From Pseudomonadota bacterium (GTDB lineage: Bacteria; Pseudomonadota; Gammaproteobacteria; JAKBBU01): a DNA stretch of 64,000 bases. Positions 22,284-29,143 of this stretch are shown here, one piece after another (within the stretch, counting starts at the first letter, position 1; each line of letters opens with the position of its first letter). The notes beneath the pieces are model-generated. The model saw only the letters and a list, made by a program, of their open reading frames with translations. It was not told the origin of the DNA and did no database searches. Position numbers and translations under genes: made by a program. The stretch spans positions 13,703 to 77,702 of the forward strand of contig JAKBBU010000002.1 of assembly GCA_021808365.1 (NCBI GenBank). The letters are read 5' to 3'.

Positions 22284-22383
22284 GCTTTGGACGCCTCATG
22301 GATTCTTGGCTCATTTAGCCAGAAGTTGGATCATAGGTTGTCAAACCTTGTTTTGCAAGGGCAACCGCATCTTGGGAAAAGGC

Positions 22384-22419
22384 GGTCTGTTGACATCCAA
22401 GAGAACTTTTAGCTACATT
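22384..22419 (+). promoter_or_regulatory. Candidate sigma70-type promoter for the large NACHT gene (perfect TTGACA -35 at 22390-22395 inside a ggtctgTTGACA repeat copy; possible -10 TACATT about 18 nt downstream)
   Basis: Motif reading only; about 75 bp upstream of the RBS GAGGAG. Confidence 0.3.
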
Positions 22420-22491
22420 GTCAATGAAGCTGAATGACCGGCCGGAACTGCAATTTTGCTGGAAAGTCAAACAAATGTTGAGGAGAGTTTC

Positions 22492-25400
22492 ATGGAACAA
22501 GAAGAATTAGAATCAAATGAGGGTCCAAATATTATTGACCCAGAAAAGCCAGTTAAACAAGCACCTTCCCAAATTATCTTTTTTGATCTCCCTCCTTTCT
22601 CGAGTTACGAGAGTTTTGCAACCTATTTTAAAAACCGAGTCCATAAGCAAAAAGAAGTTGCTAACCCAGAAGAACTTGAGCTGTTGTGTGGATTTGCATT
22701 GCATCATCTGTCAAAAAACAAGCGCACGGATAATATTCTCGTATCTATTGTTCAACTCATCGGTTGTGGAAATGAAGAAATAACAAAAGCGGTTGTGACT
22801 CACCTGCAAACTATTACAAAAATCCCCCATGAAGGCCTTGCTTTGTTCCGTGCTTTGCGAACATTCACCAAAAATTTAGAAAAAACAAACCAACACGCTG
22901 ATCGAGTTTCATTAATACAACTATTTTTAGAGGTTATGAATGCTATTTCAGAATCAGGAAAACTCACAGGGACACTCTCTTCAAAAACCATATTGAATGC
23001 CTTAAACACTGTGAATGTACTGTTGAGCCATATGCTGAAGGAAAACATAACACTTAATGCTCATCAACGAAAAGCTCTATTAGAAACGAGTGAGAAGTTT
23101 GTTGTGAATCTGAAAAAAGACGCTGCTCGTTTTCCAAACCATTATTTTTTAGCATATCAAACAACAGAAAGGCTATCAGCTATTATAGCAATGGAATTGG
23201 AAAAAGATAAGAAAGATAGAGTCCAGAAACAACACGATGAAAAAATAGACATCGTATTTGACATCGTGGGCGCAGGAGGATCTTTTATAGCTGGAAGTGC
23301 TGGATTAGCCCTGGCCATAGGACTCTCTGCAGCCTCGCATGGTGCCCTTGCTCCTGTCCTGATCTTTCCAGCATGTGTCGGGTTTGGAGCTGGCATTTTT
23401 GGTGTTATAGTGTGCATCAAAAATATTAAAGGTCATTACAACACTTTAGAAAGCTTGAAAGTTTCGACAAATGTTCAAGCTTTAAAACTTCCTCTCAAAA
23501 CTGCCGAGGTACCGGATGATATACCTTTGAGATCTGAAAAACTCCATTTAACATCTCCATTACCCGACTTTGAGGATATGAAAGTTGGTACACTTTATAT
23601 TGAAAAAATCGAAAAAAATAAGAACAAAGAACTAGAGAAAGGAAAGCCTTATTTAGCCTATAAAGCAAAATCTGGCCAGAACAATGAAATTTTAATTTCA
23701 GGGACTATATCACGTGAAAAATTAGGTAATGACGCATTTAAAAATATCAAAGATAAACCATCATTAAACTCAATGAAGCAACAAATTCTTAATATTACCT
23801 TCGAAAGAGGCCACACCTGCTCTTGGGATCAAGTTTTAACAAACATTGAAAAAAAATTACACGACAGCTCCAGAAAAAATCAGCCTTCTTCTTGGGATAT
23901 GATGAATTTCGTGTATTGTTTGACACAACTAAGGCTCAGATCTAAAACAGCAACACAAAAAGTGGACCAAAGAATAAAAAATATTTTTAGCGAAATTTAT
24001 TCGAAATATATCACTTCAAAGAAAAACTCTCATATTAGTGCATTTATTCTTCACAATATTTTATTACTCCGTAATAAAAAGTTAAAAAACTATCCTTTAC
24101 GAGGCAAAATCACGCCGTTTCTTTTGGGAGATCCACCGCTGGAACCTGAGAAAAATGAACAAAAGTCAGTTTCTGAAACCCTTAATCGTTATAATGCTAG
24201 TCGTATTTTTGAGAAAAGTCTGGGTAAGCGAAAGCGTTTATATCAAGAGAGCGTTTTAAATCAAGATAATCAGAAAATTATTCCTGATATTAGTTTAAAA
24301 ACCCATTGGTTCAAACTATTCAAGTCGGATGAGTGGGTCGACAACGCTCTACAATTTTACGGATCGAATCAATTTGATTTAGCTGCTAGAGAGTTGTATA
24401 ATGTGAAACGTCGCATTTTATTGCCTAAACAAACTTCTCACTGGGCACGTGAGATTTATAATATTTTGATAAATACCCCTGAGATCAAGGGCCAGCATCC
24501 TCCAAAACTCTCTCATGAAGATAAAATTCATCAAATGCTATCAGAGATCGATGATACTTTGAGCCAATATTATCAAAAAGATATTGCCATCCCTTTGTTA
24601 CAAGGCTCAAGTAATAACACACTGGATAATTGCTACATTCACTTGACCTTAATCGACCGAAAAGAGCAAAAGCAGCATGAAGAAGTTCTTTCAAAAAGTG
24701 CAGTTGATGATGATAAAGAACAAGAGTATGTAAAAAATTACGAAGTATTGTACCAACAAGACTCTCCGATTGAATTAAATCAGCTATGGCAATCCGAATC
24801 CTATCACTTTCAAAAAATTGAGCACTCGCCTAAACATCTAGTGATTCGAGGACCTGCAGGGATAGGAAAAACCACGATGCTGCGCTGCCTTGCACTTCAT
24901 TGGGCAAGAACCTCTGAAAAGACACAAGAATCTTTTAAAGTTTGGCAGGTTCCACTGGATATTTCCAATTGGCGCGCACATTTTGCTCTCCTGCTTCATG
25001 TGCCTCTCCGAAAACTGTCAACATATACACCGCGTAATATGCATCTTCCTGCTTGGAATGATTTATCCCCAAATGGACGACGTCTTGCGGAGTTCTTTGA
25101 ATACCTTTATGGCAACTTACACCCCGAACACATCATATGGCTGGCACGTAGCTTATCGTCTAAACAAGAAAATGATCCTCGTATCCTTTTATTGTTAGAT
25201 GGCTTGGATGAAATTAGTGCTTTGTTAGAAGAAAATTTCGCCTCTGAATCAAACATAGTGGATGCCGTTAAGCAGCAACAACACGAAGACCGATATCATC
25301 TTCTGCAGAGTTTGTTAGATCATAAAAACTGGCTATTAACCACGCGCCCCCATCTCGCCGATCATCCTAAATTAAATCATCATGACACACATCATCTGGC

Positions 25401-28374: not shown

Positions 28375-28397
28375 TGGGCACCAAAAGGACAAAAGCA

Positions 28398-28796
28398 ATG
28401 AACCTTCAATTTCTTGAAAATGCCATTATCCGACTTGACGAGGGTCTAGCACGCTATCATCAAGATACCAACGATACACAAATTCGGGATGGACTTATTC
28501 AGCGTTTTGAATTTACTTATGATCTAGGCTACAAAACGCTCAAACGATATCTTGAGTCAGTATCAGCCACACCTTCTGAATACGATAGTATATCTTTTGC
28601 TGACCTTATTCGCAGTGCAAATGAGCAAGGTCTCTTGCTTGGAGATTGGCCAAAATGGCGGCAATATCGTCATCTGCGAAATCAAACCAGCCATACTTAT
28701 GATGAAACAATTGCACTTTCAGTAGTTAAGCATATTCCAGAATTTTTACAAGAAATTGTTTTTTTACAAAATAAATTGCGGGAGAATTTAACGTGA
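28398..28796 (+). CDS. HEPN-domain nucleotidyltransferase substrate-binding protein (HI0074 family; HepT-like toxin)
   Basis: QRFEFTYDLGYKTLKRYLE family signature and an RNQTSHTYDE HEPN R-x4-6-H motif. Confidence 0.8.
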   Translation: MNLQFLENAIIRLDEGLARYHQDTNDTQIRDGLIQRFEFTYDLGYKTLKRYLESVSATPSEYDSISFADLIRSANEQGLLLGDWPKWRQYRHLRNQTSHTYDETIALSVVKHIPEFLQEIVFLQNKLRENLT

Positions 28797-29125
28797 GTTT
28801 TCCCTCGCCTCGTATAGATCTGCATCCAACACATTGGGAAATTGTTAAGCATATTTTAAAAAAGCACGTACCTAACAATGAAGTATGGGCCTTTGGATCA
28901 CGTGTAACCGGACGAGCTAAACCCTATTCTGATTTAGATTTATGTATTATAACTGACAAACCACTTTCTTTATCTACGATCAGTGCATTAAATGAAGCAT
29001 TTTCTGCATCAGATTTACCCTGGAAAGTTGATGTAATTGATTGGTCATTAACAAGTGACTTATTTAGAAAAGTTATTGAGAAAGATAAGATTATATTACA
29101 AACAGGCCCAGACTGTTTACATTAA
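28793..29125 (+). CDS. Minimal nucleotidyltransferase (MNT; MntA-like antitoxin)
   Basis: GSRVTGRAKPYSDLDLCI matches GS-x9-DxD. 4-bp ATGA overlap with the upstream HEPN gene. Confidence 0.8.
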   Translation: MSFPSPRIDLHPTHWEIVKHILKKHVPNNEVWAFGSRVTGRAKPYSDLDLCIITDKPLSLSTISALNEAFSASDLPWKVDVIDWSLTSDLFRKVIEKDKIILQTGPDCLH

Positions 29126-29143
29126 TTTTAGCCGTTGAAGCGG

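Follow-up and report, generated by a model that had tools for sequence, protein, structure and literature searches.

Two kinds of protein system are among the closest described counterparts of the locus analysed here. The bacterial NLR-related NACHT (bNACHT) proteins (Kibby et al., 2022/2023) and the antiviral STAND (Avs) proteins combine a central NACHT NTPase, with its Walker A and Walker B motifs, with C-terminal HEAT repeats of the 'antigen-receptor' type and, at the opposite end, a variable domain; in its Walker B motif, NACHT has a signature of its own, D[GAS]hDE (Kibby et al., bioRxiv 10.1101/2022.07.19.500537). HEPN-MNT toxin-antitoxin pairs are defined as a class by the motifs RX4HXY in the HEPN protein and GSX10DXD in the MNT protein (PMC11586414). 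Genes related to both occupy, together with a small lipoprotein gene and a palindromic element, the 6.8-kb gap between glmS and lysS (22.3-29.1 kb) of a 64-kb stretch of DNA (contig JAKBBU010000002.1, hereafter the window) from an uncultured gammaproteobacterium. A previous sequence-only reading of this stretch had listed these four elements, a NACHT/STAND protein, an entericidin-like lipoprotein, a palindrome and a HEPN/MNT pair, all of which we find at the positions it gave, and had taken them together for a compact defence-island-like module outside the core genome. Our analysis leads us to favour, with modest confidence, a looser arrangement, in which the interval is a permissive inter-operon spot that has collected independent accessory or conflict units, rather than one integrated defence island. 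The genuinely new piece at the locus is a nearly orphan NACHT-HEAT protein with a domain that carries a membrane hairpin, here called domain X.

This protein, an NLR-like STAND ATPase of 1704 residues, is encoded at 22492-27606 (plus strand). The listing of open reading frames (ORFs) starts the gene at a TTG at position 22456; the ATG at 22492 gives the 1704-residue product, which is matched exactly on 13 metagenome contigs. A GAGGAG ribosome-binding site lies 7 nt ahead of this ATG, and further upstream a promoter-like site, TTGACA-18-TACATT (22390-22419, plus strand), is found as a consensus match only. Four regions can be distinguished along the protein: the N-terminal domain X, the NACHT NTPase, the HEAT repeats and an acidic Ser-rich tail. 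Pfam recognises both NACHT (58.8 bits, cut-off 26.7) and HEAT_2 (36.7 bits, cut-off 27.7). Based on a motif search and on an alignment with its relatives (alignment A1), the NTPase module spans residues 675-1200 (24514-26091, plus strand) and contains the Walker A motif GPAGIGKT (residues 787-794, 24850-24873, plus strand) and the Walker B motif LLLDGLDE (residues 900-907, 25189-25212, plus strand), the residues of both being invariant across the aligned relatives, followed by the blocks TTRP at residue 950 and FQHLTYQEF at residue 1166. LLLDGLDE fits the D[GAS]hDE signature, and the Pfam score as well as the Walker A (GxxxxGK[ST]) and Walker B patterns place the protein within the NACHT clade. 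The conserved FQHLTYQEF block sits where the NACHT winged-helix extension would be expected, and no winged-helix Pfam model matched the protein. Among PDB sequences, the top matches are NACHT domains of NLRP3 (E = 7e-7). HEAT repeats are recognised by HEAT_2 at residues ~1528-1600 (27073-27291, plus strand; 5e-9 to 6e-11), homologs having long HEAT arrays, and the helical repeat region probably extends from about residue 1400. The protein closes on a tail of ~100 residues rich in Ser, Asp and Glu, in which an acidic block is followed by a hydrophobic C-terminus, DDDEDEARRKDPSFYLL.

Domain X covers residues ~20-620 (22549-24351, plus strand) and is uncharacterised and helical. According to phmmer and a second alignment (A2), it shares homology with the C-terminal portions of P0139 and P0157, which are NACHT proteins as well, and with the protein P0144 (E = 4e-18, 3e-14 and 1e-16, respectively). 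Its position relative to the NACHT module therefore varies between proteins, being N-terminal here and C-terminal in P0139 and P0157, and the closest NACHT relatives lack it altogether. Within the domain, a Gly/Ala-rich hydrophobic hairpin with two predicted membrane helices is found at residues 258-312 (23263-23427, plus strand); when the whole 1704-residue protein was scanned, 19-residue Kyte-Doolittle windows above 1.6 were confined to this hairpin. An equivalent hydrophobic stretch is seen in P0139 and P0144 in alignment A2. The hairpin is followed by an insert of ~110-130 residues that is poorly conserved and of low confidence. Domain X yielded only chance-level matches in a PDB profile search and in a relaxed Pfam search, and none in a search of plasmids; a single-sequence AlphaFold2 (AF2) model is all-helical, with low confidence (pLDDT 45).

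Judged by sequence searches, the NACHT protein is almost an orphan. A word-indexed search of 5.8 billion proteins matched only the protein itself, and an exhaustive HMMER search of 1.84 billion representatives recovered 8 proteins at E<=1e-30, ~40% identical over residues 675-1200 only. These 8 closest relatives are NACHT-HEAT proteins, one of which (P0130) carries a C-terminal protease of the Ulp1/RickCE type; for an OTU domain suspected by eye in the same protein, Pfam gave no confirmation, and we make no claim to it. The next tier of relatives comprises TIR-NACHT-HEAT proteins (P0135, P0136) and a NACHT-ankyrin-patatin protein (P0134). Relatives in JGI metagenomes are just 23-30% identical, and the viral contigs searched contain relatives neither of the NACHT protein nor of the MNT protein described below. 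The patchy distribution and extreme rarity of this subfamily indicate an accessory gene, not a core one. The protein is built as a variable module followed by a NACHT switch and a repeat solenoid, and among its relatives TIR, patatin, protease and domain X are swapped; such a combination is characteristic of STAND proteins of the conflict type. Of the named relatives, the two that are closest in the NACHT module (L099 and L100) both come from one other gammaproteobacterial metagenome-assembled genome (MAG), GCA_019752835.1, and represent a small paralogous expansion. In this MAG the NACHT genes are separate from the giant HEAT-repeat genes that flank them, and they adjoin TraD fragments and an antitoxin gene of the HI1420-downstream type; in L099 the HEAT part runs on into the following ORF, pointing to a split gene or a frameshift.

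With the bNACHT and Avs proteins, the 1704-residue protein thus shares the central NACHT NTPase with its Walker A and D[GAS]hDE Walker B motifs, the C-terminal 'antigen-receptor' type HEAT repeats with a variable domain on the other side, and relatives that exchange TIR, patatin and protease domains. It differs from them in having no match to a PADLOC model, in an N-terminal region of ~600 residues that is an uncharacterised domain with a transmembrane hairpin instead of a known enzymatic effector, in the ~110-130-residue insert and the ~100-residue Ser/Asp/Glu-rich tail, and in belonging to a subfamily of only 8 members at the above threshold (E<=1e-30) among the 1.84 billion representatives. 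As the most likely mechanism we infer that the two-helix hairpin probably anchors the protein in the inner membrane, so that its helical N-terminal part and its NACHT-HEAT part would both be cytoplasmic. By analogy with other bacterial NACHT and Avs proteins, the C-terminal HEAT solenoid would bind a trigger, upon which the NACHT module would oligomerise in an NTP-dependent manner; the clustered copies of domain X might then perturb the inner membrane or signal from it, with a conflict or abortive-infection type response as the presumed outcome.

At the other end of the interval lies the toxin-antitoxin pair, consisting of a HEPN toxin of the HI0074 family (132 residues, 28398-28796, plus strand) and an MNT nucleotidyltransferase antitoxin of the HI0073 family (110 residues, GTG start, 28793-29125, plus strand), the stop of the former overlapping the start of the latter by 4 nt (GTGA). 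HEPN scores 117.9 bits against PF08780 (3.7e-34) and 90.5 bits against TIGR01987 (cut-off 55.8), and matches the structure of HI0074 (PDB 1JOG) with E = 1e-19; MNT is recognised by PF01909 and PF18765 and matches the structure of HI0073 (PDB 1NO5) with E = 6e-29. Both also show weaker matches to the HEPN-MNT structures of Legionella pneumophila. The class-defining motifs are intact, RX4HXY as RNQTSHTY (HEPN residues 94-101, 28677-28700, plus strand) and GSX10DXD as GSRVTGRAKPYSDLD (MNT residues 35-49, 28895-28939, plus strand), so that the pair resembles HI0073/HI0074 of Haemophilus influenzae in both proteins and in both motifs. With lpg2920/2921 of L. pneumophila and with the pair on the Zymomonas plasmid pZZ6.01 it shares the organisation as an overlapping two-gene operon with HEPN first; on pZZ6.01 this order comes with the identical 4-nt overlap, amid other toxin-antitoxin genes and an IS5. 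HEPN relatives that are 55-59% identical occur on 30 plasmid records (Acetobacter, Zymomonas, Legionella and others). From the type VII HepT/MntA systems proper the pair differs in both partners. MNT reaches only 42.8 bits against the NCBIfam MntA equivalog NF047752 (cut-off 60), and the pair is therefore filed under HI0073/HI0074 and not under MntA/HepT. Its HEPN protein falls in PF08780, unlike the Shewanella HepT prototype, which belongs to the DUF86 family. Taken together, the family matches, the intact motifs and the plasmid-borne relatives identify the pair as a type VII toxin-antitoxin module that is mobile and belongs to the HI0074/HI0073 family. Following published work on relatives, the HEPN RNase would be kept inactive by MNT, which would add AMP to the tyrosine of RX4HXY; the pair would behave as a mobile, addictive unit, and a role in defence is possible.

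A further difference between this pair and known HEPN-MNT systems is a 289-bp element in its leader (28088-28376), ending 21 nt 5' of the HEPN start. It corresponds to the 290-bp composite palindrome of the sequence-only reading, which is borne out and can now be sharpened to a non-autonomous element of the miniature inverted-repeat transposable element (MITE) type. Its terminal inverted repeats are perfect over 32 nt, begin with CAGGG and were matched in 0 of 100 shuffles. Folded as DNA, it reaches -96.8 kcal/mol, versus -29.0 +/- 3.5 for shuffled sequences (z = -19.6), and it contains nested internal hairpins and no ORF of note. Missed so far was a perfect 9-bp direct repeat, GGCACCAAA, that abuts both ends of the element (28079-28087 on the left, 28377-28385 on the right), for which we calculate a chance probability of about 4e-6. 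The perfect inverted repeats and target-site duplication, the small size and the absence of coding capacity together lead us to classify the element as a MITE-type non-autonomous transposon, and the inverted repeats and the duplication show that it was inserted. Directly upstream of the insertion point, a consensus scan gives a promoter-like site for the HEPN-MNT operon, TAGACC-17-TATAGT (28047-28075, plus strand). When the element and one copy of the duplication are removed in silico, this site comes to lie ~25 nt from the HEPN ribosome-binding site AAGGA, and such a compact reconstructed leader indicates that the element went into the 5' leader of the toxin-antitoxin operon. The MITE thus transposed to a place between the likely promoter and the ribosome-binding site, and the HEPN-MNT mRNA now probably carries a hairpin of roughly 290 nt.

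In its size, perfect terminal inverted repeats, 9-bp duplication, lack of a transposase, strong structure and intergenic position, the element is like other bacterial MITEs. It differs from them in being single-copy in the data searched: the 64-kb window has one copy, and JGI metagenomes, IMG/VR and PLSDB have none. Nor did the window, the JGI metagenomes, IMG/VR or the plasmids yield a related element or an insertion sequence that could be its parent. CAGGG ends and duplications of 8-10 bp are typical of ISAs1, to which the element might be assigned. Two Logan contigs break exactly within its two terminal repeats. We assume that the Logan assembly used k = 31, which the 32-nt inverted repeat exceeds, and this would account for the breaks; provided that this value holds, they are no evidence of many copies of the element. 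A match to the plant microRNA precursor family MIR8007 of Rfam (28119-28324, minus strand) scored 29 bits against a gathering score of 195 and is an artefact of the long MITE hairpin.

Between the NACHT gene and the MITE lies an ORF of 48 codons on the minus strand (27656-27802) that encodes an entericidin-family lipoprotein (ecn; PF08085, 34.2 bits, cut-off 23.3), with a LAAC lipobox at residues 21-24 (Cys24). It resembles EcnA and EcnB of Escherichia coli in being a lipoprotein of about 45 residues with a lipobox and the Pfam Entericidin domain, but differs from them in being a single gene and not an ecnA-ecnB antidote/toxin pair, and it stays below both NCBIfam equivalog cut-offs (EcnB 42.7 versus 94, EcnA 17.5 versus 86). 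A strong ribosome-binding site (AGGAGG) precedes it, and a promoter-like site, ATGACA-16-TATACT (27908-27935, minus strand; 10/12 matches), is again a consensus match only. The NACHT gene and ecn are convergent, with 49 nt separating their stop codons; a 10-bp perfect hairpin in this gap (inverted repeat I16, 27614-27636) is a candidate for a weak bidirectional terminator. A strong terminator-like hairpin, with a 14-bp stem followed by a T run (inverted repeat I5 and consensus scan, 27971-28010, plus strand), has no plus-strand gene immediately upstream; from its sequence and position, it may stop read-through from the NACHT gene, antisense to ecn, ahead of the toxin-antitoxin operon, or mark a small RNA. 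Contigs from independent assemblies (L002, L003, L004 and L088) stop within ecn, at 27748-27786, where no repeat is visible; these ends could stem from locally low coverage or from a second, paralogous ecn at another place in the genome. Ecn is not a defence gene and nothing ties it to the adjoining genes, so that the sequence-only reading's inclusion of it in a common module finds no support; we regard it as a putative stand-alone gene for a small envelope lipoprotein that would be served by its own promoter-like site and be unrelated to the other units.

How these units came together can be explained in several ways. That they were acquired as a unit, as one integrated defence island in which the STAND NTPase and HEPN-MNT act as anti-phage systems, has in its favour that STAND and HEPN-MNT genes are both recurrent constituents of defence islands (see also Kibby et al.), that none of the other genomes examined preserves the neighbourhood and that a mobile element is located inside the interval. 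PADLOC recognises no known system at the locus: the NACHT protein gives P-loop-level noise (14 bits), the entericidin and HEPN proteins have no meaningful match, the nine neighbouring proteins yield nothing, and nowhere at the locus are two or more recognised defence systems clustered. MNT does match models of the PADLOC candidate system PDC-S09, which speaks for an island, and a type I specificity model scores higher (88.6 bits). No integrase, no flanking direct repeat and, in the entire window, no tRNA were found, and Pfam detects no recombinase domain in the four locus proteins; a direct repeat pairing positions 22167 and 28079 (D5) was rejected as a chance match inside glmS. Composition, too, is native-like: the genes for NACHT, HEPN and MNT stay within 2 standard deviations of the 55 window genes in GC, GC3 and codon usage (NACHT gene GC 0.378 and GC3 0.333; window means 0.405 +/- 0.039 and 0.338 +/- 0.065), with unremarkable codon-usage likelihoods at the locus. 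The layout gives three separate transcription units with the unrelated ecn in the middle, as the NACHT gene and ecn are convergent while ecn and HEPN-MNT are divergent, each of the latter with a promoter-like site; and the target-site duplication of the MITE shows that one component, at the least, came independently. We therefore consider a single acquired island improbable. The native-like composition would also suit a locus that is ancestral to a deep-branching lineage, in which the NACHT protein would serve as a housekeeping ATPase for signalling, specific to that lineage, and the gene order would result from old rearrangements and not from accessory gain. All 13 metagenome contigs (13/13), from several samples, are 100% identical to the window, without any presence/absence polymorphism, and the synteny of the flanks is lineage-unique as well (there is no prfB-lysS arrangement, and lysS follows an LpxO-like gene). 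The same identity across samples leaves no presence/absence variation with which an island could be recognised. The toxin-antitoxin family is clearly mobile, however, the MITE insertion is a discrete event, and the NACHT subfamily is patchy and extremely rare, and we give an ancestral origin little credence. Comparisons with other genomes favour an island no more than an ancestral locus: in the search of 5.8 billion proteins the nearest LysS is 72% identical, a scan of genome contigs gave LysS relatives <=65% identical among the matches listed, and all locus proteins are singletons at 90% clustering. The three nearest lysS contexts read prfB-lysS with glmS not nearby, and when 86 further lysS loci of gammaproteobacteria were inspected over +/-10 kb, 0/86 had glmS, ecn or HEPN and 1/86 had an MNT gene. 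Neither the empty site predicted by the sequence-only reading nor the same gene order in distant relatives, by which it would have recognised an ancestral locus, was thus seen in the loci examined. Of its proposal of a non-core accessory block, the lineage-specific and mobile content (the rare NACHT protein, the HEPN/MNT family found on plasmids, the MITE) holds, and the single integrated defence island is not borne out.

The main rival explanation concerns the NACHT-HEAT protein itself, which might be a secreted effector of a host-associated bacterium directed at eukaryotes, its bilobed hydrophobic hairpin inserting an NLR-like scaffold in a host membrane, with the toxin-antitoxin pair and the MITE unrelated to it. 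The relatives with a Ulp1/RickCE-type protease (P0130) or with ankyrin and patatin carry domains that are common in effectors of intracellular bacteria, and several orphan, low-GC, coiled-coil proteins are spread across the window. The acidic block with its hydrophobic C-terminus, a candidate E-block signal, and the long disordered linkers are also reminiscent of Dot/Icm substrates. The Dot/Icm effectors predicted for a Legionellales symbiont include NACHT/NLR-like proteins (bioRxiv 10.64898/2026.04.11.717937), and NLR-clade NACHT proteins are encoded by Rickettsiales (bioRxiv 10.1101/2022.07.19.500537). Secretion-system genes are absent from the 64-kb window, though, the TIR-NACHT-HEAT relatives suit immunity better, and LysS is nearer to that of the free-living Thiohalophilus and Sedimenticola (69%) than to that of a Legionellales MAG (64%, among the matches listed), so that we hold such an effector to be unlikely; more doubtful still is that the protein and its few relatives form a new class of NLR-like proteins built on domain X, which would insert into the host membrane and plant there a secreted NLR mimic that would imitate or interfere with host NLR signalling and would not be a cell-autonomous phage sensor. 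We thus return to a permissive spot that gathers independent units, against which several observations weigh. That a STAND gene clusters with a toxin-antitoxin pair and a MITE in a span of 7 kb is itself the look of defence or variable islands. No recognised defence model backs an antiphage role, PADLOC giving no STAND hit, and domain X is without recognised fold or function, its AF2 model (pLDDT 45) being unusable. Long low-complexity linkers and an acidic Ser-rich tail are unusual among characterised defence STAND proteins. Counts of promoter and terminator consensus matches in the region are not above those of shuffled sequences, and the separation into units therefore rests mainly on gene orientation. 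Finally, there is no close relative from which to read in which order and when the units were acquired.

On its left, the interval is bordered by glmS (20454-22283, minus strand; TIGR01135, 833 bits), which has sugar-nucleotide and lipopolysaccharide (LPS) genes as its neighbours. With glmS begins a glmS-rmlACDB/O-antigen-type operon, which occupies window positions 1-20.4 kb. This LPS/O-antigen-type sugar-nucleotide cluster (1-20388), which ends at glmS, includes heptose-type kinases, an RfbH-like aminotransferase, UDP-glucose dehydrogenase, GDP-fucose synthase, a Wzm/Wzt-like ABC transporter and rmlBDCA. Since such a cluster fills that side, the 'housekeeping' left flank is the edge of a usually variable region. 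On the right, lysS (29144-30649, minus strand; TIGR00499, 691 bits) is convergent with the MNT gene, their stop codons being 18 nt apart. In the lysS region (29144-32983), the gene has no preceding prfB, unlike in all three nearest relatives, and follows genes for an Asp/Arg beta-hydroxylase (LpxO-like) and an amino-acid permease on the same strand with gaps of 4-5 nt; synteny around lysS is rearranged in the source lineage. Located 4-6 kb to the right of lysS are genes for a small GIY-YIG protein (33551-33913, plus strand) and for a 158-residue protein without recorded Pfam hit (35210-35686, plus strand); neither matches PADLOC, and they accordingly do not extend a defence cluster.

Elsewhere in the window, three orphan proteins of about 445 residues are encoded among housekeeping genes, at 11420-12748 (plus strand), 55702-57045 (minus strand) and 59174-60514 (minus strand), with GC of 0.32-0.36 and no Pfam or PADLOC match. 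Two of them look like coiled coils and have acidic C-termini, the third contains several hydrophobic segments, and all three are similar to the effector-type orphans found in host-associated bacteria. A listed ORF at 63289-63708 (GC3 0.60), whose codon usage is the most atypical of the window, is probably spurious, the gene calls of the contig placing there a 749-residue ParC/GyrA-family gene that begins at about 63069 and runs past the window end (64000).

Regarded as a 'defence island', the locus is ordinary, with a toxin-antitoxin pair of a known family, a single STAND protein that is unvalidated, a lipoprotein gene unrelated to them and the remnant of a transposon. The MITE, lying in the leader of a toxin-antitoxin operon whose toxin gene comes first, is an elegant natural example of how a mobile element can alter the expression of such an operon. 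If the NACHT-HEAT protein is indeed an immune or conflict sensor, its domain X with the membrane hairpin would join the modules that are coupled to bacterial NLR-like switches, from a lineage that has no sequenced close relatives, and this would be of interest for mapping the diversity and origin of NLRs.

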